A stretch of 32,000 bases of DNA, from the NCBI GenBank assembly GCA_964648855.1, contig CAZYLT010000001.1, positions 1 to 32,000 of the forward strand, written 5' to 3'. The notes under the pieces are model-generated. The model worked only from the letters and a program-made list of their open reading frames with translations. It was not told the origin of the DNA and did no database searches. The stretch is from an uncultured archaeon (GTDB taxonomy: Archaea; Asgardarchaeota; Thorarchaeia; Thorarchaeales; Thorarchaeaceae). A program made the translations under genes and the position numbers. Below, in pieces: positions 1,156 to 29,556 of the stretch. How positions within the stretch are numbered: the first letter of the stretch is position 1; each line of letters starts with the position of its first letter.

Positions 1156-4098
1156 TCACTTTTTCTTCATGAGAACTACGATGAGGACTACGACAACTAC
1201 TCCCACAACAGCAGCGATGATGATAATGAGAGTACTGTCTAGGGGTGGGGTATCTGGTTCTGTATCGGTGTCAGTCGTAGTTTCTGTGGTGGTTGTTGTA
1301 GTTGTTGTAGCAGGTTCCGCTACAATACACTCCTCAATGGCCAGAGTGGTCCAATGATCCAGTGTGTCATTCGCAGAAAGAACGTACTCAACAGTAGTTC
1401 CATTTTCAAATGGCCCCAATTCCACGGAGTAGGTATCACCCGAATCGTGGGTCATATTTGCCACAGTCCAAGTACTTCCACCATCCGTCGTGTAGTTACA
1501 CAGGACAGTATCTACCCCACTGATATCTGTCACATTGACGGTTATTGGGATAGGGGATTCTGGTGTAGGCCATGTTCCTATGGTTAAATGCGACATTCCA
1601 GGCCCATTGTTGTCAATAGTGAATACCGCGGGCGTCAAGTCGTCACCACCTGCCAGCTTATCATCAAATGCTTCTACCTGAATTAGATAGTCTAGACCGT
1701 CATCAACTGTTGTAGTGTCCCACAAGAAATCGGTCGTGGCTAGTCCATCAGCAATGAGAATCCAATCGGTACCGCCATTTGGGCTATAATACAGATCGAA
1801 GGTCATTGGATCCTTATTTGGATCTACAGCAGTCCATTGGATATTCACCATCCCTTCAAATGTTTCACCACCTGAGGGGGTGGTAAGGTCTACTACAGGG
1901 CCGCGATTCTCCGAAAGCCAATAAAACGCATTTCGCAAGAATATATCATTGTCACTATCATAGAGATTTGCTATGCCATCACCATCATTGTCACCATTGT
2001 AGCGCTGTAAGAATCTATCTCCAATAACGAAGACACGACCGAGTTCATGTTCCAATGCGCACGCGAGTGGAAGCCCATCAGCTGGTGTACCATCATCATA
2101 TTGTGCAGTGCCATCAGTATCAGTGGAAACAAGAGCTGTTCCTCCACCAATACTGAGGAGTGGAGAAGCACGGATGATTTCAATCCGAGTCACTCCATCC
2201 ATTATTGGGTGGGAGCCAAAATTACTCGAATTGTAGTATATATTTTCGAAAATGCCAATAAGGTCATCAGTATCGGTTATAATTCCAGTATTATTGAAAT
2301 CCATTCCGAACTCAGCTAGTACTGAGTCTATCTCATCACTATAGCCTCCTGCTCCTCCAAACATAGCAAGACCACCACCAGCATTAACAAAATCAACTAT
2401 GTCAACAAGTTCTGCATTGGTGTAATTTACATCATCACCATGAAGGAGAAGCACATCGCATGACTCTATCAAAACTGTCTTCCAGCTCCATTGCCACCTC
2501 ACAGTGTATCCATTCTCTGTTAGAAATTGAGCCAGGCCATAGTACGAGGCATTCACGAACCAAGACGGACCATGTGTCTCATCAAAGAGAATGAATTTCT
2601 CTTCTTGTCCACCGCTGGAGCACCACTGGATGAAATTGAACAGGAACATCTCATTGTCAGAGTCGTAAAGATTGACGTCTCCATCCCCATCAGGATCTGA
2701 TGTTGGGTTAGCCATATCGATATCACTCATCACAGCGACCCTACCTATTCCATAAGATGCTGCCGCAGCGACAACAACTCCATCTGCCGGAGACCCATCG
2801 CTCCAGAAACTAGTGCCATCTGTATCAGTTGTGACAAGGGGGACTGCGTTTGCAGGTATACTAGCAAAGCCGCTACCTTTGTCAAACTCGACCCGACCCA
2901 CATCAATCATGACCGAGTGAGATTCGAAGTTTGATGTATTGTAGATTATGTACGGGGCATAGGTATCATAGTCATCAGTTTCTTCGAGGTAGTATGACGA
3001 TTTGTTGCGGATAAATCCAAAATGATCTGTAACTGGGTCAAGCTCCTCTCCATATGACCCGTATTCAGTTATGATGAATACGCCTCCGCCATCCTCAACA
3101 AAGTGACTGATAATGTCAACTTCAGTTGCATTGTAGGCAACATAGGATACTTGGAGAATCAGCAAATCACAACCAGCAAGCACATCTGCTGAAAACGTAG
3201 ACATGCTCGACACGGCATATCCCTGCTCAACGAGAACCATGCTTATGTTAACATAATCCCCTTGGATGGTGTAATGAGATGAATGCGATTGGTCGAACAC
3301 GACATGTCTAGTCAGCTGAATAGCATTGATGAGTATCTGCTCTTGAGCTTCTCCTGTTGCGTACAAGTCGAAACCAAGGAGAGCAATGTGTCCTGACCCC
3401 CTCGTAATATGATATACAGTAGAAGCCGTGCTATCCTCCACAACGGATACACCCCCAGTTCCGTTAAAGCGCAATGCACCATCGATACCGGGGAAAGTTG
3501 CATTAAGACCTCTTGATAATGCATCATCTGTATTGACTACGGTGTTTGTTTCTCCTGGATATGCGTCTGGGTTGTATGTTGTGATAAGCCCGGTTTCGTT
3601 GAATAGGTGCAGGGCAGGACCATGTAGTGTTGCAGTAATGGAATAGCAGTCCATTATTACAAGTACGCCCCCACCCTCCACGAAGCTATCGAAGACTCCA
3701 GCCCAAGCAGCACCAATAGTTGTGATGTTTTCACTACTTAGCTTCTCCTGCTCAGGGATTAGCACCACATCATAACCCATTATGACTGAAGCAAGTTCAG
3801 AATAGTCAGTCAAGTTATCGACATGATAGTCATTCAGAAAGTTCGCGCGGACGATATCCAATGTATTCTTGAGTTCACCATTTGCAGAGATTTGAGAGTC
3901 TGCAAACTCGGTGTAAACAAGCATCGACTTTGGTATCTTTTTGTTTGGCATGTCTTCTGAGAGTCTTACATCATCTGGAATATCAAGTCCTGCAGAAATC
4001 GCCGGCATTGCATCTGACGAAATATTTGTGACAGAAACTGCAGATGATAGAAACAGCATGATGAGAAATACACTCAGAATTCTTCTGTTCATTTTCAA
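1156..4098 (-). CDS. Cell-surface protein with tandem GATase-like (GldG/IFT52 GIFT- or DUF4350-like) domains, Ig-like region, Thr-rich linker and C-terminal TM anchor
   Basis: Signal peptide; repeated xxFDxxH...GYxV...CDxLxL...FVxxGGG modules; TTTTTTTT linker; hydrophobic TM followed by KKK. Confidence 0.8.
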   Translation of the reverse strand: MKMNRRILSVFLIMLFLSSAVSVTNISSDAMPAISAGLDIPDDVRLSEDMPNKKIPKSMLVYTEFADSQISANGELKNTLDIVRANFLNDYHVDNLTDYSELASVIMGYDVVLIPEQEKLSSENITTIGAAWAGVFDSFVEGGGVLVIMDCYSITATLHGPALHLFNETGLITTYNPDAYPGETNTVVNTDDALSRGLNATFPGIDGALRFNGTGGVSVVEDSTASTVYHITRGSGHIALLGFDLYATGEAQEQILINAIQLTRHVVFDQSHSSHYTIQGDYVNISMVLVEQGYAVSSMSTFSADVLAGCDLLILQVSYVAYNATEVDIISHFVEDGGGVFIITEYGSYGEELDPVTDHFGFIRNKSSYYLEETDDYDTYAPYIIYNTSNFESHSVMIDVGRVEFDKGSGFASIPANAVPLVTTDTDGTSFWSDGSPADGVVVAAAASYGIGRVAVMSDIDMANPTSDPDGDGDVNLYDSDNEMFLFNFIQWCSSGGQEEKFILFDETHGPSWFVNASYYGLAQFLTENGYTVRWQWSWKTVLIESCDVLLLHGDDVNYTNAELVDIVDFVNAGGGLAMFGGAGGYSDEIDSVLAEFGMDFNNTGIITDTDDLIGIFENIYYNSSNFGSHPIMDGVTRIEIIRASPLLSIGGGTALVSTDTDGTAQYDDGTPADGLPLACALEHELGRVFVIGDRFLQRYNGDNDGDGIANLYDSDNDIFLRNAFYWLSENRGPVVDLTTPSGGETFEGMVNIQWTAVDPNKDPMTFDLYYSPNGGTDWILIADGLATTDFLWDTTTVDDGLDYLIQVEAFDDKLAGGDDLTPAVFTIDNNGPGMSHLTIGTWPTPESPIPITVNVTDISGVDTVLCNYTTDGGSTWTVANMTHDSGDTYSVELGPFENGTTVEYVLSANDTLDHWTTLAIEECIVAEPATTTTTTTTETTTDTDTEPDTPPLDSTLIIIIAAVVGVVVVVLIVVLMKKK

Positions 4099-9028: not shown

Positions 9029-9859
9029 TCAGATTTCTTTGTATTCTACACATGGGTCCTCGATGCCCTTCTTGATGTTATAGTCAATTATCCGACCCAT
9101 TAAGCCAGAGTCTAAAATGCATGAGATTGCATCTTCTGGGCAGTTTATTTCGCAAGACAAACAAAGAATGCAATCATGACCCCATTTTGGGATTCCATCG
9201 TCATCAAGAAGGATGTTTTTGGTCGGGCATACACTGACACATTTGCCACAACTTATGCAGGCTTCTTCATCAACAGAAAAAGTTCTGCTAAGCAGATTGT
9301 TGGTCACCCATCTCTTGGAAGCAAGTCTTTCAAGCCTATACATTCTAGGAGCTTTGGGGTCCGATTCTTGTACTGCTACCTCATCCTCGTGGTATCTATA
9401 AATCAAGGAATTGGCGAATTCTGATACTTCGTCCAGCTCGGCTTCGGTTGGATTTTCAGGACAAAAAAGAATTCCTTTTCTTGTATACCCAGGGAAGTGA
9501 TTGGCACCCCTTATTTTCACATAGCCTATGTCACGGCCTCCGTTCTGTGTTAATCGCTCTCTGATATCGTTGCCTGTGTCTCCGACATGAAGGCTATACA
9601 AAGCAAAAACAAAGAACGCTCGGCCTTCTAGTGAAGAAATTTCGTCAACAAATTCTGTAACAAGAGCAGGAGGCCGGAAGAAAAATGTTGGTGTCCCAAT
9701 GCCTATGACATCAAAGTGCTCAACCGGTGGACACGAGTCCTCCAACATGTTGACCATATTAACTGACCAACCCTGTTCTCCCAAACCTTCCGATAATAAG
9801 TTAGCAACTTTCGCCGTTGAGCCCATCTGAGAGAAGTAAACAATTAAGCAATTAACCAT
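9029..9859 (-). CDS. EFR1-family flavodoxin-ferredoxin fusion
   Basis: N-terminal IVYFSQMGST and IGTPTF flavodoxin motifs; C-terminal CISCGKCVSVCP and CILCLSCEINCP 4Fe-4S motifs. Confidence 0.88.
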   Translation of the reverse strand: MVNCLIVYFSQMGSTAKVANLLSEGLGEQGWSVNMVNMLEDSCPPVEHFDVIGIGTPTFFFRPPALVTEFVDEISSLEGRAFFVFALYSLHVGDTGNDIRERLTQNGGRDIGYVKIRGANHFPGYTRKGILFCPENPTEAELDEVSEFANSLIYRYHEDEVAVQESDPKAPRMYRLERLASKRWVTNNLLSRTFSVDEEACISCGKCVSVCPTKNILLDDDGIPKWGHDCILCLSCEINCPEDAISCILDSGLMGRIIDYNIKKGIEDPCVEYKEI

Positions 9860-10150
9860 TCTATATGCCCCGGAGGTATTTGTGGATGGAGTGATGTACG
9901 TTAACTGTTGTCATTTAGGCTTTCAAGGAATCTTGGCGCGTCCCATTTTGTGCATATTCTCTATCTATATCAGTTTTTGAAAAAGCATCGTAGTTTGTAT
10001 CAACTGGGAAAAGATGAAATACCCGCATTTAGAAAAACTGGAGTGGATACAGGTAAGTGTTCCATTGATGAATCATGGACAACTCTGGCATAAGTTCATT
10101 TATTTGCACCAATGCATGATTCACCATCCACAAGCTGAGAGGTAGATAAT

Positions 10151-13096
10151 GTGACATCACAGACTGCAGAAACTGCAGATGACACTGATAGAAGCTTTCA
10201 TGCCATGTCTGCTCATGATGTTGTTAGTTCTCTAGGATCGAACTCAGAACGAGGTCTCTCAAGCGGTGAAGCAAAGAATAGATTGGCATTCCACGGGCTA
10301 AATACAATCAAGAAGGTGAAGGGCTCCTTTTGGAAAGTCTATCTCGCTCCAATATTGAATTGGCTGATCAACATCTACCTCGTTAGTTCATTCGCTCTTT
10401 TGATTCTTGCATACTTTTTCCAATCTAGTGAAAACCAGATTGGTCAAGCTCTTCTATGGCTAGGTGTGGTGACCGTCAATTGTTTCGTCGCAATCTTCCA
10501 GCAGTTTCGAGCTCAGAAAAAGCTTGAAGCATTGGAGAAGCTATCAGCCGGTGAAGCTCGAGTAGTACGTGATGGTGCTCAGCTCAATCTGCCCCCAGAG
10601 GAGATTGTCCCAGGGGACATTATGATACTCGAACAAGGAGATAAAATTCCAGCTGACTCGAGGATTCTAAACGAGAATAATCTGACAGTGAATGAAGCCT
10701 CTCTGACTGGAGAAAGTGTTCCAGTTGACAAGAATGCCTCGGTTATTGTTGAGAAAGATGCCCCACTAACAGATAGAAAGAATATGACCTTCTTCGGAAC
10801 ATATGTTGCAACTGGCACTGGAAGAGTCATTGCAACCGAAACTGGTTCTGGAACAGAGATTGGCAAGATTCAAGGGACTCTTGAGGAGCTCAATACGGGC
10901 GATATTCCGCTACGGAGTAAAATTAATCGGCTGGCAAAATACTTGGCAATCGCTGCGATATTTCTAATGATTCTCTCAGTCACATGGGCACTCATTTGGG
11001 GACCGCTTCTCACTGGTCAACCAATAATGCTTGATCCCATTACCATTGCGGACACGCTAACTTCAGGGATTACTAAGGCAATGACTATAATGCCCATCAA
11101 CATTCCCTTGTTGTCCACTATTGTACTTCTGACTGGTGTCTTGGCAATGGCAAAGATGGGAGTCATCATTAGAGACCTCTCAGCTGTCGAGAGCCTTGGA
11201 AGAGTCAGCCTAATCTGTTCTGACAAGACAGGAACCATGACAAGAAACCAGATGACGGTAAAATACATCTGGGATACTGAAAATCTGTATTCGGTGTCAG
11301 GCGCGGGTTACATCCCCGAGGGAGGAATTTACCGTGTCAAGGATGGAACGCCTCTGGATACATTCGAACCACAAGACGAGGTTAGAGTATCTGATGTGTT
11401 AGGATGGAAGAGTCTTCACAAGCTGCTGGTATGCGGCGGCATCAATAATGACTCCGAGATAATAACGAAGAAACTACCTGAGCAGGGTATCGTCCACATT
11501 CCCATGGGGGACCCAACGGATGCGGCTCTGCTTACTCTATTTAGAAAGAGTGGGTTAGCCGAGGACGAAATTGAGAAGAAATATCCAGTTATGATGGAGT
11601 TTCCTTTCGAGTCTAACCTAAAACGGATGTCAAAAATCTGTCGTGACGAAAATAGCTACATCGCATTTGTGAAAGGTGCCACAGAGATTTTGCTGCCTAG
11701 ATGTACCAAACGTGATGGTTCAAAGAAGCCCACCGAAATGAGCTCAGAAATGAGAGATAGAATAACGAAGATGACCACTGATTTTGCGACGAAGGGATAT
11801 CGTGTCATTTCCTTGGCTTATAAGAACATGAAGTCTATTCCGAGTAATCCCCATGCAAGAGAGAAAACAGAAACTGACTTGACCTATCTCGGGTTTGCAT
11901 GTATTGTTGATCCTCCCAGAGGAGGAGTAAAAGAAGCTGTGAATGCCTGCCATAGTGCTGGCATCAATGTGATAATGATAACAGGAGATGCCGCTGCCAC
12001 GGCTAAGACAATTGCCGCAGACCTGAATATACTCAAGCCCAATTCCCTTGCAATTGAAGGAAGCCAAATAGATGAAATATCGCCTGAAGACTTTCAGAAT
12101 GTCAATGTGTTTGCGCGGGTAAATCCAGAACACAAACAGGTGATTGTAGAGAGATACCAGGACCAGAAGAAAGTTGTAGCAATGACGGGAGACGGAGTTA
12201 ATGATGCCTTGGCATTAGCCATGAGTGACGCAGGCATTGCCATGGGGATAACAGGAACTGATGTGGCAAAAGAGGCTGCAGACCTAGTCATTACTGATGA
12301 CAGCTTTTCTTCTATTGTTACTGGTGTACATGAGGGTAGAGGACTCTTCAACAAGATCCGCATGATGGTCTACTTCTATGTTGCCATAAATCTGTTTGAG
12401 TCAATTGTATTCTTTGGAGGTATGTTCCTCTTGCCTGCGGGTTTCAATATGCTGACAGCTTGGCAGAGCCTCTATATTGTAGTTACTACTCATTCTTTCC
12501 CCGGACTCGCATTGGTCTTTGACAAGACATCTCCTAGAGCAATGGAGGAGAAACCACGAGACAGCGAGGAGATAATTACCAAGAATCTTGCGAAATTCAT
12601 GGGATTAAGCATTGTATTGATGACCATCGGAGCCGCTATCGTCTATGGACTCACATATTCTAATTGGGGTAGCATTATTCCACTATTTGCAGAAAATCAA
12701 GCAGGCTTCTATGCAGACTGGATTGACCCCCTTACCAATGAACCCTTTGCAATTACCAGCTCCGTCAAAGCCACCGTGATGCTACTCACTATTCTTCTCT
12801 TAGTTGAGAGCTCGATGGTTCTCGTAATAAGACGCATCAATCTTCCACTTATTGATGGAATCAGAGAACCAGGAATCTGGCGATATGCATTCCTTCTCGG
12901 ACTCATATACTTAGCACACTTGCTTCTGATGTATGTTCCAATAGCGCAGGCCATTTTGGCTCCCCTTGGACTGCATTTCTATTTCATTCCATTAACCACC
13001 TATGACTGGATTATCTGCATTTTGGCTGCAGCTCCAGCAATCATAGGAATGGAAATTTACAAGAAGTACCTGCGCATGAATAATGTCTCGCTATGA
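10151..13096 (+). CDS. P-type ATPase with a P2-like scaffold and atypical transport site
   Basis: PGD, PAD, TGES, CSDKTGT, GDPTD, KGA, DPPR, MITGD, MTGDGVNDA and about 10 TM segments. M4 reads PINIP. Confidence 0.95.
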   Translation: MTSQTAETADDTDRSFHAMSAHDVVSSLGSNSERGLSSGEAKNRLAFHGLNTIKKVKGSFWKVYLAPILNWLINIYLVSSFALLILAYFFQSSENQIGQALLWLGVVTVNCFVAIFQQFRAQKKLEALEKLSAGEARVVRDGAQLNLPPEEIVPGDIMILEQGDKIPADSRILNENNLTVNEASLTGESVPVDKNASVIVEKDAPLTDRKNMTFFGTYVATGTGRVIATETGSGTEIGKIQGTLEELNTGDIPLRSKINRLAKYLAIAAIFLMILSVTWALIWGPLLTGQPIMLDPITIADTLTSGITKAMTIMPINIPLLSTIVLLTGVLAMAKMGVIIRDLSAVESLGRVSLICSDKTGTMTRNQMTVKYIWDTENLYSVSGAGYIPEGGIYRVKDGTPLDTFEPQDEVRVSDVLGWKSLHKLLVCGGINNDSEIITKKLPEQGIVHIPMGDPTDAALLTLFRKSGLAEDEIEKKYPVMMEFPFESNLKRMSKICRDENSYIAFVKGATEILLPRCTKRDGSKKPTEMSSEMRDRITKMTTDFATKGYRVISLAYKNMKSIPSNPHAREKTETDLTYLGFACIVDPPRGGVKEAVNACHSAGINVIMITGDAAATAKTIAADLNILKPNSLAIEGSQIDEISPEDFQNVNVFARVNPEHKQVIVERYQDQKKVVAMTGDGVNDALALAMSDAGIAMGITGTDVAKEAADLVITDDSFSSIVTGVHEGRGLFNKIRMMVYFYVAINLFESIVFFGGMFLLPAGFNMLTAWQSLYIVVTTHSFPGLALVFDKTSPRAMEEKPRDSEEIITKNLAKFMGLSIVLMTIGAAIVYGLTYSNWGSIIPLFAENQAGFYADWIDPLTNEPFAITSSVKATVMLLTILLLVESSMVLVIRRINLPLIDGIREPGIWRYAFLLGLIYLAHLLLMYVPIAQAILAPLGLHFYFIPLTTYDWIICILAAAPAIIGMEIYKKYLRMNNVSL

Positions 13097-13238
13097 CCTA
13101 TGTGGAAGCGACCGTGAGCAAAGAATTTGTCAGTGTGAATCATCTTTCGCTTGCAATAGAATTGTATATACAGTAATGATTCCGCATGGGAACTACATAA
13201 ATAACATATCTGACTTCAATCGGATAGGCGATATACCC

Positions 13239-14096
13239 TTGGCTAGAATGACAACCCACAAAATTCGGTTGATGAAAGAGAAGGGCAAGAAAATCGTGAT
13301 GCTGACTGCATATGATGCCCCCACTGCCAAAATTGTCAGTGAATGTGGAGTGGACATGATATTAGTTGGAGACTCGGTTGGTAATTCACTGCTCGGATAT
13401 GAGAGCACCATCCCCGTGACATTGGAGGATGTCATTCATCATTGTGCAGCAGTTTCCAGAGCAAAGCCGGATAGTTTCATTGTTGGCGATATGCCATTTA
13501 TGTCATACAAAGTAAGTCCGGAGCAGGCTCTTGAAAATTGCGGGAAAATGCTTCAGAAGGGAGGCGCAGAAGCTGTCAAGATCGAGGGAGGGACTGACAG
13601 GGTTGTTGAGATAGTCCAGGCGGTAGTGGATGCGGGTATACCAGTAATGGGGCACATAGGACTGACACCGCAATCTATCTACGAACTTGGTGGCTATCGT
13701 GTCCAAGGAAGAACAAAGGAAACAACCGAGAGCCTCGTATCACAGGCTGTTGCGCTAGAAGAAGCAGGTACATTCTCACTTGTTATTGAACTTGTTCCGT
13801 CACTGACTGCAAAAATGGTCACTGAGTCCATCGATATTCCTACGATTGGGATTGGTGCAGGATCTCACTGCGATGGACAGGTCCTAGTCATTTGGGATAT
13901 GCTGGGTCTCTTCGACGAATTCAATCCCAAGTTTTTGAAGAAGTACGCCAATACTCGCAAAGTCATCAAGGATGCTGTGAATGAATACTCAAAAGAAGTT
14001 CGAGAAGGGTCCTTTCCAGACCCAGAACATAGTTTTGAAATGTCCGAAGAAGAGTCGGGAAGGCTATACGGCAGAAATAGGCCGAATGAGAAGTAG
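13239..14096 (+). CDS. panB: 3-methyl-2-oxobutanoate hydroxymethyltransferase
   Basis: MLTAYD, LVGDSVG, GDMPFMSY, VKIEGG, MGHIGLTPQ, IGIGAG, DGQVLV. Start is probably TTG 13239 or ATG 13248. Confidence 0.95.
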   Translation: MARMTTHKIRLMKEKGKKIVMLTAYDAPTAKIVSECGVDMILVGDSVGNSLLGYESTIPVTLEDVIHHCAAVSRAKPDSFIVGDMPFMSYKVSPEQALENCGKMLQKGGAEAVKIEGGTDRVVEIVQAVVDAGIPVMGHIGLTPQSIYELGGYRVQGRTKETTESLVSQAVALEEAGTFSLVIELVPSLTAKMVTESIDIPTIGIGAGSHCDGQVLVIWDMLGLFDEFNPKFLKKYANTRKVIKDAVNEYSKEVREGSFPDPEHSFEMSEEESGRLYGRNRPNEK

Positions 14097-14103
14097 AACG
14101 TGT

Positions 14104-14325
14104 CTACTCCTCGTCTTTCTTTACCTTTTCATTTAGTGCTTCTACAAGCTTGTCGGGGTCAATTCCGTGTGCTACAGCACCCTGTTCAACGTTTTCATAT
14201 TTGGCGACAGCGCAGCCATAGCAATGGAGACCCCACTCCATGAAAGTTCCTGCTGTTTCTGGCCACTTCATCACTACTTCAGCGATTGTCATGTCTTTTT
14301 TGATTGCTTGAGCCATTGTATTCAT
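14104..14325 (-). CDS. DUF1858 domain protein
   Basis: IKKDMTIAEVV...GLHCYGC...ENVEQGAVAHGID pattern. Confidence 0.85.
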   Translation of the reverse strand: MNTMAQAIKKDMTIAEVVMKWPETAGTFMEWGLHCYGCAVAKYENVEQGAVAHGIDPDKLVEALNEKVKKDEE

Positions 14326-14397
14326 CTCTCTATTAACTATGGTTAATGATTCTCACCCATACATCATAATTTTCCAAATATATACATTGCGTTAGAG

Positions 14398-15357
14398 CTA
14401 GTTGAAAGAATATTGGTCTCCGACACTCGAATAAACAGATACATTGCCTAAAGCGGAGCTGATGGACTGCTGGGCGCTCCAACCGGTGCAATGGGTTGCA
14501 GCTACGAAACCAGGCTGCAATTCTTTCAACTCATGAACAGTAGCTTCAATGATAGATTCGTTTTTTCTGGCCAGATGAAATCCGCCAATAATCCCAGCGA
14601 CTTTTTCTTCACCGGTAAGCTCCATGGCATATTTGACCATGTTCACAATGCCAGCATGGCTACAACCTGTCACAATAACAAGTCCATCTTTTGTTCTGGC
14701 AGCCACAAATTGATCTTCTATCAGGGATTCATCATGTTCCCACCTACCACCAATCATTGCGTGATGACCTGGAAAGCCAGTTTCGTAAGAGGTCCGTCTG
14801 GGTACTTCACCAGAGACTAGCAGTAAGTCATCATGAATTATTGCCCCCTGGCTCGAGTCCTTCAATAACCCCGCCTTCTCTCGTATCTCATGACGCGTTG
14901 GGACTGGGTCAAGCTCGCGAATTCTTACTTCGCCGTTCTCTTCTTTGTGAACAGACTTTGGTAGAAACATCCTAGGGTGAATGTATATCGGTATGCTATC
15001 CTGCTCCAGACTCTGTAATAGCCAAATCAACCCTCCGAAATGGTCCCAGTGCCCATGGGACAGGATAACAGAATCAACGGGTTGGAAGTCAATTGCTAGG
15101 GAGGATAGATTGTTTGACAACACTATGTCTGATGGGCCAGTATCATAGACAATAGTGTGTTTCAGTTCACCCTTTGCTATTTCAATTAATGCTGAAAATC
15201 CATGACCTGCAATCAAATAATGGGGATTAGCATCCGCCGAATCTGCCCATGAACCTGCTCTCTTAGCCCGAGGGTGAGAAGGATCCGAGATCCATCCAAT
15301 CTTGTTGTCAACAAGTAGAGTAACAACCACTTCATCCCCACATCTTAGACTCTTCAA
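14398..15357 (-). CDS. MBL-fold metallo-hydrolase (MJ0301-like subfamily)
   Basis: HGFSALI, YDTG, LSHGHWDHFGG, TGCSHAG, GGFHL, HCTG. Confidence 0.88.
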   Translation of the reverse strand: MKSLRCGDEVVVTLLVDNKIGWISDPSHPRAKRAGSWADSADANPHYLIAGHGFSALIEIAKGELKHTIVYDTGPSDIVLSNNLSSLAIDFQPVDSVILSHGHWDHFGGLIWLLQSLEQDSIPIYIHPRMFLPKSVHKEENGEVRIRELDPVPTRHEIREKAGLLKDSSQGAIIHDDLLLVSGEVPRRTSYETGFPGHHAMIGGRWEHDESLIEDQFVAARTKDGLVIVTGCSHAGIVNMVKYAMELTGEEKVAGIIGGFHLARKNESIIEATVHELKELQPGFVAATHCTGWSAQQSISSALGNVSVYSSVGDQYSFN

Positions 15358-15373
15358 ACGAGGACCCCACTAT

Positions 15374-15796
15374 CTATAGTACCATATGGTCGAGCCCCAT
15401 GTCCTTGAGAACCTGGGGGTAGACCTTGAAGAGAGGTTTGATTTTCGAAAGAAGTCCTAGAGCCTTTGCGATAGAACCATCCAACTTGACCTCTCCCTTT
15501 GCCATGGCAATAGTTGTATTCAGTTTTCCCTGCCAGAACTTGTTCGTCGTTTCAGAGGTGCTCCAGACAGCGATTTCTGGCTCAACATCAGAGTCAAAAC
15601 TGAGTTTACCCAGTTTGCCATCTTCTCCTTTCTCTTGGAAGTTAATGGTCACGTGCACTTCGGGTTGTTCAATATCAAATCTTACAATAATCCCGGACTT
15701 TGCCAGTTTCTCGTGTACCTGTTCCTGTTCCTTGGCACGAGGCCAAAAATTGCAAAATACCTCCTTCAACTGCTCGCTACTTTCATAGTAAGGCAT
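15374..15796 (-). CDS. SCP2 sterol/lipid-binding domain protein
   Basis: FWQGKLNTTIAMAKGEVKLDGSIAKALGL matches the SCP2 C-terminal signature. Confidence 0.8.
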   Translation of the reverse strand: MPYYESSEQLKEVFCNFWPRAKEQEQVHEKLAKSGIIVRFDIEQPEVHVTINFQEKGEDGKLGKLSFDSDVEPEIAVWSTSETTNKFWQGKLNTTIAMAKGEVKLDGSIAKALGLLSKIKPLFKVYPQVLKDMGLDHMVL

Positions 15797-18332: not shown

Positions 18333-19484
18333 ATGACAGTTGCTATAGTTGGTATTGGACACACTGATTTTCGAAGTACAACACCCGACGTTTCCTTCAA
18401 AGAACAGATGTTTGAGGCTGCTCTCAAAGCTTACGAGGATGCAGGAGTTAATCCAAGAGAGGATGTTGGCAGTTTCATTACAGGTGCTGAGGACTACTGG
18501 GAAGGTTACTCGATTTTTGACGAGTTTGTGCCTGACCAGCTTGGTGCAGTCCTCCGCTCGGTCTGTACAATAAGTGGAGACGGAATGCAGGCTCTAATCA
18601 CAGGAGCCATGCAGATTGAAACGGGGTTGTTTGATATTGTTGCAGTCGAGGCTCACAGCAAGGCCTCTGATTTGCTATCATTCACAGGAATTGTGAGCCA
18701 TGCTCTTGACCCAGTATACAATCGAAGTATGGATGTAAATCCGTTCTTTGTGGCCGGTCTTGAAATGAGAAAATATCTCTCCAAGTCCGGTAATACTCGA
18801 GAGCAATGCGCTCATGTGGTCACAAAGAATAGAAAGAACGCTCTTGACAATCCGCTTGCAGCGTATCCTGCGATTATGTCTGTCGCCGAGGTCATGAAAT
18901 CAGAACAGGTTTCTGATCCCTTGACCAAACGTGATATTAGTCCTCTTGCAGACGGAGCGATTGTTTTCGTTCTTGCTTCAGAGAAGAAAGCCAAAGAGCT
19001 CTCAGACTATCCCATTTGGTTGAAGGGCATGAGTTGGATCTCTGAAACTCCGTGGCTTGAGTCACGTGATTGGAGTGATGCACTCTATGCTCGCAAGACT
19101 GCGAAAAAGGCGTTCAAAATGGCTGGAATATCGAATCCAGAAAAAGAGATTGGTCTCTTAGAGGTTGATGATTGGTTTTCATATAAAGAACTGCAACACC
19201 TAGAGGCAATTGGACTATGCAAAACAGGCGAAGCTGGAAAGCTCCTGGAAGAAGGCGCTTTCAGTAGAGATGGAGATACTCCAGTGAATATCTCTGGTGG
19301 AAGACTGGGAGCAGGTAATCTACTTGAGGCTTCTTCTCTTCAGTCGGTGTTGGAGTGTGTCTTACAGCTTAGAGGCCATGCCGGAAAGCGACAGTTGGAT
19401 GATATAGATACAGCGGTTGCCCAATCATGGCGTGGGGTGCCCACAGCAACTGGCAGCCTGCTAGTTCTTGGGAGTGAAAAATAG
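18333..19484 (+). CDS. Thiolase-fold protein (SCP-x/Ltp4-like, no canonical catalytic Cys)
   Basis: VAIVGIG, KNRKNALDNP, SPLADGA, EVDDWFSY, VNISGG. Confidence 0.88.
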   Translation: MTVAIVGIGHTDFRSTTPDVSFKEQMFEAALKAYEDAGVNPREDVGSFITGAEDYWEGYSIFDEFVPDQLGAVLRSVCTISGDGMQALITGAMQIETGLFDIVAVEAHSKASDLLSFTGIVSHALDPVYNRSMDVNPFFVAGLEMRKYLSKSGNTREQCAHVVTKNRKNALDNPLAAYPAIMSVAEVMKSEQVSDPLTKRDISPLADGAIVFVLASEKKAKELSDYPIWLKGMSWISETPWLESRDWSDALYARKTAKKAFKMAGISNPEKEIGLLEVDDWFSYKELQHLEAIGLCKTGEAGKLLEEGAFSRDGDTPVNISGGRLGAGNLLEASSLQSVLECVLQLRGHAGKRQLDDIDTAVAQSWRGVPTATGSLLVLGSEK

Positions 19485-19497
19485 GAGGAGATGGAAG

Positions 19498-20661
19498 ATG
19501 ACGATAAAGAAACGTGTAGCAGTTATTGGTGCTGGGATTACACTCTTCAGACGTAGACTGAAGGAGACTGGCAAAGAGTTGTCATACCACGCATCCAAGA
19601 TGGCACTTGATTCTGCTGAGATGAATCTAAGTGAAATTGAGAGCGTCGTGATGGGTACTGCTCCAGATGCTTTTGATGGTATTCATATGAAATCTGAAAA
19701 TCTGCTTGATGGCGCGGGCGGAGTCGGCAAACCGTATATGAGGCCCTTTGTTGGTGGTGGTACAGGCGTATTCTCGCCAATAGCAGGTTGGTGGCATGTT
19801 GCTTCCGGATTATTTGATACCTGCTTGGTTGTTGCTGAGGAGAAAATGAGCCCATGTCAACCCCATCCGCAGACTGCATTTCGCACCATATGGGATCCAA
19901 TAATAACCAGGCCTCTGAACCCGAATCTTGTCTGGATTTTTGCCTTGGAAATGAACCGATACATGAAAAAGTACGGTATTCCAAAGGAACACATTGCTGA
20001 GGTTGCTGTGAAGAATAAAGGAAATGCTCTTGATCATCCGAGTGCTCAGCTAGCTGCCAAGATAACGGTCGATGATGTTATGAACTCTGAAACAATGGTT
20101 TATCCCGTCCAGCGATTGGATATCAGTCCACCCAGTGACGGAGCAGCCGCTCTGATTCTTGCTTCGGAGGACGTAGCTAAGAAATATACTGACTCTCCAG
20201 TTTGGATTGATGGAGTAGGTTGGTCTCTTGACAGTTCTTACTGGACAAATAGAGACCTCTATTTCCCGCAATATGTTGCTGAGGCAGCCAAAATGGCTTA
20301 TAAGATGGCGAAAATAGACAATCCACCGAAAGAAGTCGATTTTGCGGAGCCATATGATCCATTCACTTACAAAGAACTGCATCACATGGAAGGTTTACTC
20401 CTTGCAGAGAAGGGCCAAGCTCCGAAGCTTACGGCAGAAGGTGTAACTCAGCGTGATGGTGACCTTCCGATATGTCCATCTGGAGGCTTATTGGGAGTGG
20501 GAAATCCTATTGCAGCTGCCGGGTTGATGAAATGTTGTGAGGCCTTCTGGCAACTGAGAAATGAAGCTGGGAAACGGCAAGTTGATGGAGCAGAAACTGG
20601 TGTGTGCCAGGCGTGGGGAGACCTCATGCAGGTTGGCACAGTTACAGTATTCAGGAGATGA
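19498..20661 (+). CDS. Thiolase-fold protein (SCP-x/Ltp3-like, catalytic Cys replaced by Gly)
   Basis: RVAVIGAG, PFVGGGTG, EEKMS, KNKGNALDHPSAQ, SPPSDGA, EPYDPF, CPSGG..GNPIAAAG. Confidence 0.9.
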   Translation: MTIKKRVAVIGAGITLFRRRLKETGKELSYHASKMALDSAEMNLSEIESVVMGTAPDAFDGIHMKSENLLDGAGGVGKPYMRPFVGGGTGVFSPIAGWWHVASGLFDTCLVVAEEKMSPCQPHPQTAFRTIWDPIITRPLNPNLVWIFALEMNRYMKKYGIPKEHIAEVAVKNKGNALDHPSAQLAAKITVDDVMNSETMVYPVQRLDISPPSDGAAALILASEDVAKKYTDSPVWIDGVGWSLDSSYWTNRDLYFPQYVAEAAKMAYKMAKIDNPPKEVDFAEPYDPFTYKELHHMEGLLLAEKGQAPKLTAEGVTQRDGDLPICPSGGLLGVGNPIAAAGLMKCCEAFWQLRNEAGKRQVDGAETGVCQAWGDLMQVGTVTVFRR

Positions 20662-22007: not shown

Positions 22008-22754
22008 TCATTGAAGCTCGGAACACACGGGACAATCCTCCCTGCGTTGTACGGGTGTTGACGTGTAGTCCATACGGCAACCATCGAAGAGCAGAATCCG
22101 ACCTACCAGCGTTTCTCCGAATCCAACAATCAGTTTCAGGACCTCCATGACCTGCAGCATAGCAAACAGACCGGGGGTTGCCCCTACAACTGGAAACGTG
22201 GAGACCTCCTTTGGGGTGTCGGGCAGAATACATCGAAGGCATGGGCCTTTCCCAGGGATAATCGTAGTAACCTGACCATAAAGAGCATGAATTCCGGCAT
22301 GCACAAGCGGCTTCTTCTGGTTCACGCATTCTTGGTTCAATAAAAATCGAGTCGGCCAGTTGTCCATCGCGTCGACCACCACATCGGCACCGTTGAGAAG
22401 CCTAGCAACACTGTCTTCGTTGATTTCGGTGACACGGGCGTCAATCTCAACATTCGAATTCAGCGCAAGGAGTTTCTTCGCAACGGCTTCTGCCTTAGGT
22501 TGACCAATATCCTCCTGCCATCCGAGTGTCTGACGATTCAAATTGCTAAGCTCAAAATAGTCATAGTCAACCAGCACAAGCCGGCCTACACCCGCTGCAG
22601 TCAGGTAGAGCGTCACAGGACATCCAAGACCGCCGACTCCAGCAACAAGCACTATGGCTTCCTTCAGTTTCTCTTGTCCCTCCACTCCCCAGTCCGAAAT
22701 CATCATCTGGCGTTCATACCGTTTGAGCTCAGAGTCCGAGAGGGTCGTCTTCAT
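22008..22754 (-). CDS. ThiF/MoeB/HesA family E1-like adenylyltransferase
   Basis: RYERQ, GVGGLG, ELSNLNRQ, DAMDN..TR, CLRC, CPVC. ATG 22754 follows GGAGGT. Confidence 0.92.
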   Translation of the reverse strand: MKTTLSDSELKRYERQMMISDWGVEGQEKLKEAIVLVAGVGGLGCPVTLYLTAAGVGRLVLVDYDYFELSNLNRQTLGWQEDIGQPKAEAVAKKLLALNSNVEIDARVTEINEDSVARLLNGADVVVDAMDNWPTRFLLNQECVNQKKPLVHAGIHALYGQVTTIIPGKGPCLRCILPDTPKEVSTFPVVGATPGLFAMLQVMEVLKLIVGFGETLVGRILLFDGCRMDYTSTPVQRREDCPVCSELQ

Positions 22755-22874
22755 ATCATATCTACCTCCAACTCCCTTTGTCACCCTTCAATATAGGACT
22801 TGCTCAGGTAATCTGGCCGCAGCCACAATGTTGAAAACGGTTCAGATCTCTCTACATTGTGAGCAGGTGATTTG

Positions 22875-24993: not shown

Positions 24994-27900
24994 ATGAAGT
25001 ACAAAATCCTCCTCTTTCTGTTTGCTTTGCTTGTGCTCAGAAATGCTCAAGCAGCTGGAACACATACCTCATCATCGCATGCCACGCTCGATGATAGGAG
25101 TTTCGAAGCCGCTTATACTCCACATGACCCGATTTCCATCACAAGTGATAGTGATTTCGAAACTCAGGGGTGGCCAGGAAACGGAACAGCGGAGAATCCG
25201 TATAGAATCGAGGGCCTAAACATCACAACTAATGGCCATTGCATTGAAATCACGTCAACTACTGTGCATTACCTAATCAAGAATTGTTTGCTATCTGCAA
25301 CGAACCCCACCAATAATCCTGGCATATATCTTTTCTCAGCACCTAATGGAACCATTCAGGATTGCAAGATGGAAAATCATCTAAGCAACGTCTGGCTTAG
25401 CGTTTCTGACAACTGTACTTTCAAGAACAATACTATTTCTGAAACAAGCAACCAAGGAATTAAACTGTGGGGATCCAACCAGTGCGCTATAATCAATAAC
25501 ACTTTCGCCAACAATTCCGAATCTGCTATAAACCTAGAACAGACATCCAATTCCACAATTGCCAACAATACTTTCCAAAACAACGGTCTCGTTATCTCAA
25601 ATAATGATCAAATCGAGTACTGGATCACGCACGATGTGTCAGGAAACACGGTTAACGGCAAAGAGCTTGCGTATCTCAAGAATTTGAATAACACCAAGAT
25701 AGATGCAAGCACCCACGGGCAGACCATCCTTGTGAACTGCAATAATATTACGCTTGCAAATGGCACATACAACAATGCATCACGGGGAATTCAATTTGCA
25801 TTCTGCACCAACACAACAATCAGAAATAATACTGTGCTTGCTAGCAAATACGGTATCTTACAGCACTCTTCCCCCAGGAGTTACGTGATCAACAATACCG
25901 CTCGCTTGAACGAATTTGGTTTTCTCCTTTCTTCCGAAAACATGACAGCATCAAACAACACAGCCACAGAAAACCGACACGGATTCTATATCTCTGGCTA
26001 TAACGCCTTAATTTCTGGAAATGATGCGATAAACAATTCCCAGGATGGCTTCTGGATAAACACGGAAGAATCTAATTTTACGCAAAATGTAGTAAGCCAA
26101 AATCAGGTCGGTCTGAATCTCCACTATGATGACGCCTCCAATTTCGCTATGAACGAAGTGAGCAATAACAGTGAATCCGGATTCTATCTTAACATGGTTC
26201 TTGGGAGTACATTCTTGAACAATAGTATTTCAAACAGCAAACACGGAATGCACATCACAAGAGATGCCTACCAATGTTCACTGTACAACAATTCATTTCA
26301 GCAATGCGGGATGTTCCTGGATGTTAGTTCACTGAGAGAGTGGATAAAGAGCGAAGATGGAAACACCGTCAATGGAAAAACGCTGGGCTATTTCAACGGA
26401 GTTACCGGCACACAAATCGACGGTAGCCAATATGGGCAATTGGTGATTGTCGATTCCTCCTTCGTAGAGGTTGAAAGCGGGCTTTATGAAAATGCTACGG
26501 AGGGCGTTTCTCTGCTATTTTCTGACAATTGTACAATCAGAGGAACTTCCTCGGTGGATAATTCTATTAATACATATAGGATACTCCGGTCACAAGATTG
26601 CATATTTGAAAACAACACGGCGATTAATAGTCTCAATCATGGTTTCAATATACGCAATTCAAACCACATCCATTTGGAAAACAACACAGCACTTGGGAAT
26701 GCCCATCATGGTTTCTACAGTTCCTATTCGGATTTCATAGTGTTCCACAATAACACTGCAAAGCTGAATTCGGATAATGGATTTCACCTAGCTGGTGTTC
26801 ATTGGAACACGATAACAGACATCGCATTGAACCAAAACACAGCAAGAAACAACACGAATTACGGGTTCTTTGTTGAATACGCCGTGAACTGTAATCTAAC
26901 AAATAACCTTGCAAATGATAATGGTAAGTGCGGCTTCTGGATTGACAGCTCAACCAATCTCAATCTTACCGGTAACCGAGCCACTCAAAATGCAAATGAT
27001 GGAATCTCTATCGTCGAGACGGATAACAGCTATCTGCAAACAAATAGTGCTACTGGCAATTCATTCAACGGGTTCAGTTTGGAGAATTCTGATGGTTGGA
27101 TACTCACAAACAACTCCGCTGTTGCTAACCTGCTGGGATTCTCCTTTGATTCGGTAGTCAATTACAGTCTTGAAGAAAATTCTGCAATCTCCAATCTGTA
27201 TTATGGTTACAACTTCGCGAAGTCAAGTAATTTGAACCTGACAGACAATAATGCAACTTACAACGAGTTGACCGGCTTCAATTTTGATGATTCAGATGAT
27301 TGCATTGCTCTCAACAACACGGTTATTCAAAATGGCGTGGGAATAGAATTGGACGACACATCTGAGAATAATCTTTTCTACAGCAATAGTATTGGCTATA
27401 ATCATCATTACAATGGGTTTGATGATAGTCAATCTACCGCTTGGGATAATGGGACCATTGGAAATTGCTGGTCAGATTATGCTGGTTCAGGCTCATATCT
27501 AGTAGATGGTCTTGCCACCAATGTAGACAACCATCCATGTATACTCGACTTGTATGCTCCAAGACTGAATCACCCCCAAGATTTCAGCTATGAATTGGGT
27601 GCAGGGGGCAATTCAATAACCTGGGAAGCATCAGACCTGCGTTTAGATTCATACGTAGTTTATAGAAATGGCAGTGTGATAGATTCCGGTAGTACCGATG
27701 GTGTAAATCTCACAGTGGATGTAGATGGACTGGATATCGGCGTGTACAACTATACAATCAGTATCAATGATACTCTAGACAAGATTTCGATAGATAGTGT
27801 GTTCGTAACAGTTTTCGATTCTACTTCACCAGAAATAGATCGTCCAGAAGATATAGACTACGAGCTGGGTGCAACAGGAAATACAATCAACTGGAATGCT

Positions 27901-28824
27901 TCTGATTTAGACCCGTCGTCATATGAGATACATGTGGATGGCAGCATTGTTCTAGACTCATCCTGGAATGGCTCCAACGTAGAATATGGTGTCGATGGTT
28001 TCTCCCTTGGTTCACACAGTGTTATGATTATCCTTCATGACTCTAGTGATAATTATGCAAGCGACACCGTCATTGTCTCTGTGACAGATACTATTGCCCC
28101 CACCATTGATTCGCCAGCAGACGTGGAATATGAACTGGGCTCGACAGGAAATTCAATAAGCTGGGATGTTTCTGACTTAAATCCCCAGACCTACAATATA
28201 CACAGGAATGGCATACTTATCAAGAGTAAATCTTGGGACGGTTCGAATATCGAATACAACGTTGATGGTCTTTCAGTTGGAGAGTACAACATCACACTGA
28301 CCATATGCGACCGAACAGGGAACCAAGCAAGCGATACAGTTACCGTTGAGGTAGTCGACACTGTCGTTCCAATTATCAGCTCTCCTGAAGACATCATATA
28401 CGAAGTGGGTACAACTGGCCATAGTGTTTCTTGGAATGTCAGTGATGCAGGAACAGTGACGTATGTCCTGCTGAGAAATGAAACGGTTCTTTATGACGGA
28501 AGTTGGAACGGGTCGCAGATTGTTGTTGATATAGATGCTCTCGTGCCGGGCATATACAACTTCACTTTGGTCGTTACAGATGAAGGAGATAATCAGGCAA
28601 GGGATTCAGTACTAGTGTCTGTGCTCCCAGATACTGATACTACAACGACTACAACCAGCACTACCACAACCGAGACAACATCAACTACAACCACGGGGAC
28701 AACACCGCCACCAGGTCCGAATCCGATGATGATAGCCTTAGCAGCTGGTGTTGCCATAGTGGGAATCGCTCTGATAGTGCTCCTCTTCATTGTTCCAAGA
28801 ATGAAACTCGAAGGGCGATTGTAA
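24994..28824 (+). CDS. Cell-surface glycoprotein with NosD/right-handed beta-helix repeats, 4 Ig-like repeats, Thr linker and TM anchor
   Basis: Signal peptide; GTAENPYRIEGL; many NNTxxxN..G repeats; two GNTVNGK inserts; four P.D..YE.G.GN.I.W modules (about 27550-28625); many NxS/T sequons. Confidence 0.9.
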   Translation: MKYKILLFLFALLVLRNAQAAGTHTSSSHATLDDRSFEAAYTPHDPISITSDSDFETQGWPGNGTAENPYRIEGLNITTNGHCIEITSTTVHYLIKNCLLSATNPTNNPGIYLFSAPNGTIQDCKMENHLSNVWLSVSDNCTFKNNTISETSNQGIKLWGSNQCAIINNTFANNSESAINLEQTSNSTIANNTFQNNGLVISNNDQIEYWITHDVSGNTVNGKELAYLKNLNNTKIDASTHGQTILVNCNNITLANGTYNNASRGIQFAFCTNTTIRNNTVLASKYGILQHSSPRSYVINNTARLNEFGFLLSSENMTASNNTATENRHGFYISGYNALISGNDAINNSQDGFWINTEESNFTQNVVSQNQVGLNLHYDDASNFAMNEVSNNSESGFYLNMVLGSTFLNNSISNSKHGMHITRDAYQCSLYNNSFQQCGMFLDVSSLREWIKSEDGNTVNGKTLGYFNGVTGTQIDGSQYGQLVIVDSSFVEVESGLYENATEGVSLLFSDNCTIRGTSSVDNSINTYRILRSQDCIFENNTAINSLNHGFNIRNSNHIHLENNTALGNAHHGFYSSYSDFIVFHNNTAKLNSDNGFHLAGVHWNTITDIALNQNTARNNTNYGFFVEYAVNCNLTNNLANDNGKCGFWIDSSTNLNLTGNRATQNANDGISIVETDNSYLQTNSATGNSFNGFSLENSDGWILTNNSAVANLLGFSFDSVVNYSLEENSAISNLYYGYNFAKSSNLNLTDNNATYNELTGFNFDDSDDCIALNNTVIQNGVGIELDDTSENNLFYSNSIGYNHHYNGFDDSQSTAWDNGTIGNCWSDYAGSGSYLVDGLATNVDNHPCILDLYAPRLNHPQDFSYELGAGGNSITWEASDLRLDSYVVYRNGSVIDSGSTDGVNLTVDVDGLDIGVYNYTISINDTLDKISIDSVFVTVFDSTSPEIDRPEDIDYELGATGNTINWNASDLDPSSYEIHVDGSIVLDSSWNGSNVEYGVDGFSLGSHSVMIILHDSSDNYASDTVIVSVTDTIAPTIDSPADVEYELGSTGNSISWDVSDLNPQTYNIHRNGILIKSKSWDGSNIEYNVDGLSVGEYNITLTICDRTGNQASDTVTVEVVDTVVPIISSPEDIIYEVGTTGHSVSWNVSDAGTVTYVLLRNETVLYDGSWNGSQIVVDIDALVPGIYNFTLVVTDEGDNQARDSVLVSVLPDTDTTTTTTSTTTTETTSTTTTGTTPPPGPNPMMIALAAGVAIVGIALIVLLFIVPRMKLEGRL

Positions 28825-29455: not shown

Positions 29456-29556
29456 TATTATTAACCTTGTAATGATTTCCTCCCGTAATTAGAAAGACAC
29501 AAGTATAGCTTGTGCAACGAACGGCGTGGGCCACCATCGGCATCAGGAATAATGAC

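Follow-up and report, generated by a model that had tools for sequence, protein, structure and literature searches.

A P-type ATPase family of Asgard archaea with a replaced M4 glutamate and a histidine for the M6 aspartate

RESULTS

A P-type ATPase gene in a Thorarchaeal contig

Few pumps are as well understood as the P-type ATPases. We analysed a 32,000-nt stretch of DNA from an uncultured archaeon of the Thorarchaeaceae (assembly GCA_964648855.1, contig CAZYLT010000001.1, positions 1 to 32,000; 'the window' in what follows). A forward-strand open reading frame (ORF) in this window, with a GTG start and a GAGG-like stretch immediately 5' of it, encodes a P-type ATPase of 981 amino acids (Table 1). 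Its Pfam architecture is of the P2/P3 type and is complete: Cation_ATPase_N, E1-E2_ATPase, Cation_ATPase, Hydrolase and Cation_ATPase_C. An earlier note on this DNA had described the protein as a pump with intact catalytic motifs, a dismantled Ca2+ site II and a membrane helix M4 reminiscent of lipid flippases.

The superfamily hallmarks of P-type ATPases (HAD-IC) are all present, namely DKTGT, the TGES-type loop, the GDGxND hinge and the KGA motif, and with the superfamily model TIGR01494 the pump reaches 260 bits (cut-off 62). Residue counts were taken from an alignment of 45 members of the family to which the pump belongs (about 35-100% identity) and 37 canonical pumps with PEGLP in M4. All 82 sequences share D358, K359, G361 and T362 without exception, and T360 is nearly invariant; full invariance also holds for K508, D587, T611, G612, D613, R656, K662, D681, N684 and D685. 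The reading of TGES, DKTGT and TGDGVND as intact was borne out both by this invariance and by re-translation from the window. With these residues in place the pump looks catalytically intact and would be driven by ATP.

The hinge position that follows GDGxNDx is Leu in 40 of the 45 family members, while 36 of the 37 canonical pumps have Pro. Nearly all P-type ATPases carry Pro there.

Replacement of ion-site residues in the membrane domain

Equivalences with SERCA were derived from HMMER alignments of the pump to Listeria LMCA1 and to SERCA2. I316, N317, N747 and E750 correspond to SERCA E309, G310, N768 and E771, and V777, T780, H781 and E886 to N796, T799, D800 and E908. The readings PINIP in M4 and YIVVTTHSFP in M6, with the replacements E309 to Ile, N796 to Val and D800 to His, were confirmed by translation and by these alignments; the N..E pair of M5 is kept, as had been proposed. 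Ca2+ site II has lost the ligands that are specific to it, the ligand common to both sites is a His and the other site-I ligands are retained. The loss of site II turned out to be a conserved trait of the family.

Position 316 is Ile in 36 family members (V3, F3, W2 and L1 in the others) and Glu in 37/37 canonical pumps. The neighbouring position 317 is Asn in 42/45 family members versus Gly in 35/37 canonical pumps. Position 781 is His in 44/45 family members versus Asp in 37/37 canonical pumps. At position 777 the family has hydrophobic residues throughout or, rarely, Thr (V18, Y10, F7, I3, T2). Among the retained positions, N747 (41/45) and E750 (45/45) are common to canonical pumps as well; E886 is Glu in 43/45 family members versus Q26 and E11 in the canonical prokaryotic pumps.

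Three further positions in M1 and M2 differ between the two groups: P67 (42/45 versus Gln in 34/37 canonical pumps), N70 (40/45 versus D20, S6, N6 and E4) and Q118 (40/45 versus Glu in 37/37). We take these to be the positions of SERCA Q56, D59 and E109. Going by the alignment, the acidic cytoplasmic entry funnel is predicted to be neutralised throughout the family. The Lys that had also been placed in M4 is there in this pump (K309), but its column is not conserved (R10, L10, K9, T7, S3 among the 45 family members).

Table 1. Positions in the window of the pump gene and of its motifs and ion-site residues. All motif coordinates were checked by re-translation from the window DNA.
Feature	Position	Strand	Evidence
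Whole gene, P-type ATPase of the Asgard 'PxNxP / M6-His' family	10151-13096	+	ORF, Pfam, AlphaFold2 model
M1 entry-funnel residues P67, N70	10349-10360	+	family alignment
M2 Q118 (Glu invariant there in canonical pumps)	10502-10504	+	family alignment
A-domain dephosphorylation motif TGES	10706-10717	+	translation; 121/121 close homologues
M4 PINIP: I316 for E309 (gate and ligand), N317 for G310	11093-11107	+	translation, alignment
Phosphorylation motif DKTGT (D358)	11222-11236	+	translation and alignment
KGATE (N-domain KGA motif)	11672-11686	+	translation
DPPR	11909-11920	+	translation
MITGD	11975-11989	+	translation
Hinge motif TGDGVNDAL	12185-12211	+	translation and alignment
M5 AINLFES: N747, E750 (site-I ligands N768, E771 of SERCA, kept)	12383-12403	+	SERCA2 alignment
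M6 YIVVTTHSFP (TTHSFP at 12485-12502): V777 for N796, T780 for T799 (kept), H781 for D800	12473-12502	+	LMCA1 and SERCA2 alignments
M8 E886 (site-I ligand E908 of SERCA)	12806-12808	+	SERCA2 alignment

Conservation and distribution of the family

PINIP is found in all 121 sequences of a set made of the pump and its 120 best database homologues (63-94% identity); the same invariance is seen for NLFES and TTHSFP. The conservation of PINI and TTH among homologues, which the earlier note had proposed as a check, is therefore complete in this set, and no close orthologue carries PEGL. Nearly all of the 120 homologues are labelled Thorarchaeota or Promethearchaeota, and databases name the family members 'Ca2+-transporting ATPase'. 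An exhaustive search of 1.84 billion cluster representatives followed the family down to about 35-37% identity, below which ordinary PEGLP/NLVTDG pumps were found. The pattern of P-x-N-x-P, N..E, His and Glu is kept to about 35% identity, and an identical pocket pattern was seen in 30 full-length family genes taken directly from Asgard genome loci.

Private degeneration of this one gene, or a sequencing error, is excluded by the motif invariance in the 120 homologues together with the family-wide conservation.

Of 400 Asgard genomes, 301 had a match at E<=1e-150, as did 72 of the 90 that are of high quality. The threshold separates the family from its canonical paralogues, as the pump gene alone passes it in its own genome. 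This genome (3.1 Mb, 94.6% complete) holds six P-type ATPases: three P1B-like pumps, two canonical PEGLP/NLVTDG pumps and the pump described here. Export of Ca2+ would thus already be covered by the two ordinary pumps.

All named family members are from Asgard archaea (Thor-, Loki/Prometh-, Hel- and Odinarchaeota). In a scan of species genomes, one Promethearchaeota locus alone among the best 80 loci listed had the signature, and the bacterial and other archaeal loci among those 80 were all of the PEGLP type, a result suggestive of a restriction to Asgard archaea. One family member (P0128) is labelled Korarchaeota by NCBI. Two genes downstream of the pump its contig encodes a small GTPase of the Arf/Ras type, and two Asgard genomes share its motif variant (PINIV in M4, with the His kept in an M6 motif that is similar); an error of binning or taxonomy probably lies behind the Korarchaeota label.

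One large family of Asgard archaea usually has two tandem copies of the pump gene, one with PINIP or PLNIP and the other with PINLP. Both copies have His in M6 and N..E in M5, and the arrangement looks like an old duplication within the pump family.

Profile scores and phylogeny

All NCBIfam subfamily models scored far under their cut-offs for the pump. The best was the PMR1-type P2A model TIGR01522 (474.8 bits versus a cut-off of 798.3); the P2A model TIGR01116 gave 412 versus 703.4, and canonical controls reached 637-771 bits. The pump scored 320 bits with the P3A model TIGR01647 (cut-off 615.5), 227.6 with the P5 model TIGR01657 (cut-off 618.25) and 93.9 with the P4 model TIGR01652 (cut-off 431.25). 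The Asp that accepts the proton in M6 of P3A pumps is His in the pump, and M4 of P5 pumps reads PP(D/E/A)LP versus MPINIP here.

A control set of three ordinary PEGLP pumps and three further family members gave a scale for these numbers. With the P4 model the ordinary pumps scored 68-96 bits and the family 89-117 bits; with the P3A model the corresponding ranges were 437-487 and 320-365 bits. By these scores, any Ca2+ pump is at least as near to P4 or P3A as the family. The Pfam scan of the pump gave no match to the PhoLip_ATPase_N and PhoLip_ATPase_C domains.

In trees rooted on a P1B pump of the same genome, a single branch split the family from the canonical pumps (support of 100 in FastTree, and of 100 in IQ-TREE by the Shimodaira-Hasegawa-like approximate likelihood ratio test, SH-aLRT). 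When Escherichia coli MgtA, a P3B pump, was added, it joined the canonical side and the split kept an SH-aLRT of 99, so that the divergence of the family is at least as deep as that of P3B. The family has a branch of its own, outside that of the canonical prokaryotic P2A Ca2+ pumps; the earlier note had allowed that the pump might nest within a characterised P2 clade, and it lies outside the canonical P2A clade sampled.

Fold comparison

The AlphaFold2 model of the pump is a confident one, with a predicted local distance difference test score of 88 and a predicted template modelling score of 0.81. Its top Foldseek matches were SPCA1 and SERCA. In VIA-align comparisons with cluster representatives, the Z-scores among P2/P3 pumps were 33.1 for PfATP4, 30.4 for SERCA2, 30.1 for AHA2, 29.4 for PMCA, 29.1 for MgtA, 28.2 for SPCA1 and 28.1 for LMCA1. 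P4 and P5 pumps gave Z of about 21-26 at 17-21% identity, a range into which the P2C pump gastric H,K-ATPase (Z 25.4) also falls; P4 structures taken by themselves had Z 23-26 at 17-19% identity versus Z 28-33 at 21-30% identity for P2/P3 pumps.

A profile of the family over M5-M10 matched SERCA best, with 109 bits over the full length, ahead of SPCA1 (79 bits), LMCA1 (66) and Na,K-ATPase (62). The 60 matches listed were to P2 pumps only, with no P3A, P4 or P5 chain among them. In fold and in M5-M10 profile alike, the pump resembles SERCA.

Gene neighbourhood

The neighbourhood of the pump gene was compared at 23 loci from several Asgard families, with the ORFs clustered by all-against-all BLAST. 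No neighbour is common across Asgard families at these loci, where synteny is seen at the level of lineages only; an obligate subunit is therefore not indicated. The local order in Thorarchaeota is a divergent S8 peptidase gene, the pump, a UFL1-like gene, panB, DUF1858 and SCP2. The present window, at 9029-15796, retains the pump, panB, DUF1858, an MBL-fold gene, SCP2 and glnA, and upstream of the pump a flavodoxin/ferredoxin gene takes the place of the S8 peptidase gene.

The divergent S8 peptidase gene flanks the pump in 7/7 Thorarchaeota loci compared; in the pump's own genome a homologue lies away from the pump, at 138-139.9 kb of contig C1. A UFL1-like protein of about 650 amino acids is encoded 3' of the pump in 5/7 Thorarchaeota loci (E3_UFM1_ligase, PF09743, 31.6 bits versus a cut-off of 23.2), and tblastn gave no match to it anywhere in the pump's own genome. 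The SCP2 sterol-carrier-like protein (15374-15796, reverse strand) is syntenic with the pump in Thorarchaeota. The longest ORF for panB (ketopantoate hydroxymethyltransferase; 13083-14096, forward strand) overlaps the end of the pump gene, stop codon included, by 14 nt. This overlap is probably an artefact of choosing the longest ORF, since homologous PanB proteins have 280-292 amino acids, a length that fits a start at ATG 13248 and a gap of about 150 nt after the pump.

Other genes were seen elsewhere in the window. The reverse strand at 1156-4098 encodes a predicted surface protein of 980 amino acids with a signal-like N-terminus, a Thr-rich stalk and a C-terminal membrane anchor; it has weak matches of the GIFT, ABC_transp_aux and DUF4350 type and repeated DGDG stretches that resemble Ca-binding ones. 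Two adjacent thiolase-like genes lie at 18333-20661 (forward strand) and a ThiF-family E1-like enzyme is encoded at 22008-22784 (reverse strand). The forward strand also encodes a NosD/right-handed beta-helix protein of 1276 amino acids with PKD/HYR-like C-terminal domains (24994-28824), which is followed by an ORF at 29512-31998 that runs past the window end and has a weak Lamin Tail Domain match (31.4 bits, under the Pfam cut-off of 34.3).

DISCUSSION

A probable single-cation pump with a rebuilt pocket

With a rough probability of 0.6, we read the protein as an active, stand-alone E1-E2 ATPase that would pump a single cation, other than Ca2+, through a rebuilt site-I-like pocket. The motor would be a standard one, in which D358 is phosphorylated and TGES dephosphorylates it, and the residues that bind ATP are all there. 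Ca2+ site II would be plugged by the hydrophobic side chains of I316 and V777. The remaining pocket would be lined by N317 from M4, N747 and E750 from M5, T780 and H781 from M6 and E886 from M8. One small cation may enter it from the cytoplasm in the E1 state, setting off phosphorylation, and would leave to the outside in E2P; the counter-ions would probably be protons on the Glu and His residues.

For the ion itself we can offer tentative candidates. A borderline divalent metal (Mn2+, Fe2+ or one like Zn2+) is one possibility, because a pair of carboxylates would join a His and amides as ligands. Another, equally tentative, is H+ or a monovalent cation, because the funnel is neutral and the Glu-His pair could relay protons.

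Several points weigh against the single-cation reading. The geometry of the pocket comes from the alignment to SERCA rather than from model coordinates. The nearby genes are unrelated housekeeping genes (panB, Lon, M29 peptidase, RFC and GNAT) and give no clue to the substrate. A conserved cluster of Cys, Met or His apart from H781 is absent, as is a metal-binding N-terminal domain, which weakens the case for a transition metal. The trees were built without eukaryotic P2B-D, P3A, P4, P5 or P6 sequences and by quick searches without a mixture model, and MgtA sits in them on a long branch. Finally, literature searches, in which TCDB was not covered, found no published account or biochemistry of any family member; this large P-type ATPase family, present in most Asgard archaea, is apparently undescribed.

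Alternative explanations

The alternative that survives best, though we regard it as improbable, is a pump for Ca2+ (or Mg2+) whose retained site-I-like pocket would bind a single ion, much as LMCA1 and SPCA use site II only. N747, E750, T780 and E886 are four of the five site-I ligands of SERCA, the best-scoring models are those of P2A Ca2+ pumps, the M5-M10 profile is nearest to SERCA and the database label of the members agrees. The fifth ligand is D800, which serves both Ca2+ sites and is His in all but one of the family members aligned. The E309 gate is hydrophobic, the acidic funnel appears neutralised and every Ca2+-pump model stays far under its cut-off. In SERCA, mutations at D800 or E309 abolish Ca2+ transport. 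Since these two positions are essential there, and since the genome already has two canonical pumps of the Ca2+ type, Ca2+ is unlikely to be the ion.

A weaker contender is a pump that flips lipids or handles some other bulky or amphipathic molecule, whether through convergence with the P4 pumps of eukaryotes or as an evolutionary link to them. The idea comes down to the Pro-Ile of M4. PINI does resemble the P4 motif PISL in having Ile at the E309 position, which the earlier note had named as a P4 hallmark; the Ser of PISL is, however, Asn, and a second Pro follows as in P2/P3 pumps. A hydrophobic residue at this position is also found in plant P3A H+-ATPases (PIAMP). The neutral funnel would suit a flippase, and Asgard archaea are the nearest known relatives of eukaryotes, to which P4 pumps are held to be unique. 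The proposal of a flippase or a P2-to-P4 intermediate is nevertheless unsupported on several counts: the P4 model scores the family no better than ordinary P2A pumps, the A domain has TGES and not DGET, the PhoLip_ATPase domains are unmatched, two buried Glu residues (E750 and E886) are conserved, P4 structures rank under P2/P3 pumps and the M5-M10 matches listed are to P2 pumps only. Nor did any test result point toward a lipid, an anion or an organic molecule as substrate. A search for the P4 subunit CDC50 (PF03381) in the pump's own genome gave no match, with the control genomes equally silent and hence no positive control. As P4B pumps function without CDC50 (Palmgren 2023, PMC10654040), the missing subunit is not decisive.

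A broader form of this idea would make the family a new major one on a par with P1 to P6, a relative or forerunner of the P4 and P5 pumps found only in eukaryotes, marked by the Pro-Ile of M4 and the neutral entry and moving a lipid head group, a polyamine-like compound or some other organic molecule rather than a metal ion or a proton. We give it very little credence. The current classification runs from P1 to P6, of which P6 is the sole family accepted since 1998, and further prokaryotic families are expected (Palmgren 2023, PMC10654040).

The slightest chance is left to a paralogue that is decaying or does not transport, such as a sensor, scaffold or futile ATPase, with site changes that mean loss of function. 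All of the canonical ligands (E309, N796 and D800) are indeed gone, but the residues that replace them are strongly conserved over deep divergence, the catalytic motifs are intact and about three in four Asgard genomes retain the gene, often in two tandem copies.

On the single-cation reading, the annotation 'Ca2+-transporting ATPase' is attached to an ion site that cannot act as a Ca2+ site, and identification of the substrate would correct a systematic mis-annotation. Characterisation of the pump would add an ion-site design in which site I is kept, site II is plugged and His stands for the universal M6 Asp. It would also show what the nearest archaeal relatives of eukaryotes must pump besides the substrates of ordinary Ca2+ and heavy-metal pumps.

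Comparison with known pumps

The P2A pumps (SERCA1/2, SPCA1/PMR1 and LMCA1) share with the Asgard pump the domain order, the 10-helix fold and the motifs TGES, DKTGT and GDGVND. They are its best matches by model, sequence and structure, and SERCA N768, E771, T799 and E908 all have equivalents in it. The Asgard family differs in forming a clade separate from the PEGLP pumps and in the replaced M4 and M6 site residues. In LMCA1 and SPCA site II is kept and site I lost, whereas the Asgard family has the opposite.

The P3A H+-ATPases (AHA2 and Pma1) likewise place a hydrophobic residue where SERCA has E309, as in the PIAMP of AHA2; they move a single charge and have built-in counter-charges. AHA2 is among the high structural matches of the Asgard pump, while the P3A model scores the family under ordinary P2A pumps. 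The proton acceptor in M6 of AHA2 is Asp-684 (PMC10654040), the position at which the Asgard pump has its His.

The P4 flippases (ATP8A1, Drs2 and Neo1) resemble the Asgard pump in the Ile that follows the M4 Pro and in lacking a carboxylate of the E309 type; they are unlike it in having DGET where the pump has TGES, and the pump has a buried Glu in each of M5 and M8. The P6 pumps, represented by mycobacterial CtpE, are prokaryotic and P2-like and form a clade of their own, with PEGL in M4 and Ile at the position of the M6 Asp (Palmgren 2023, PMC10654040). They offer a parallel, being a prokaryotic P2-like family that owes its recognition as distinct to the replaced M6 Asp and the separate clade, but the combination of PEGL and Ile differs from the PINIP and His of the Asgard pump, which is set apart from P6 by this description rather than by a tree.

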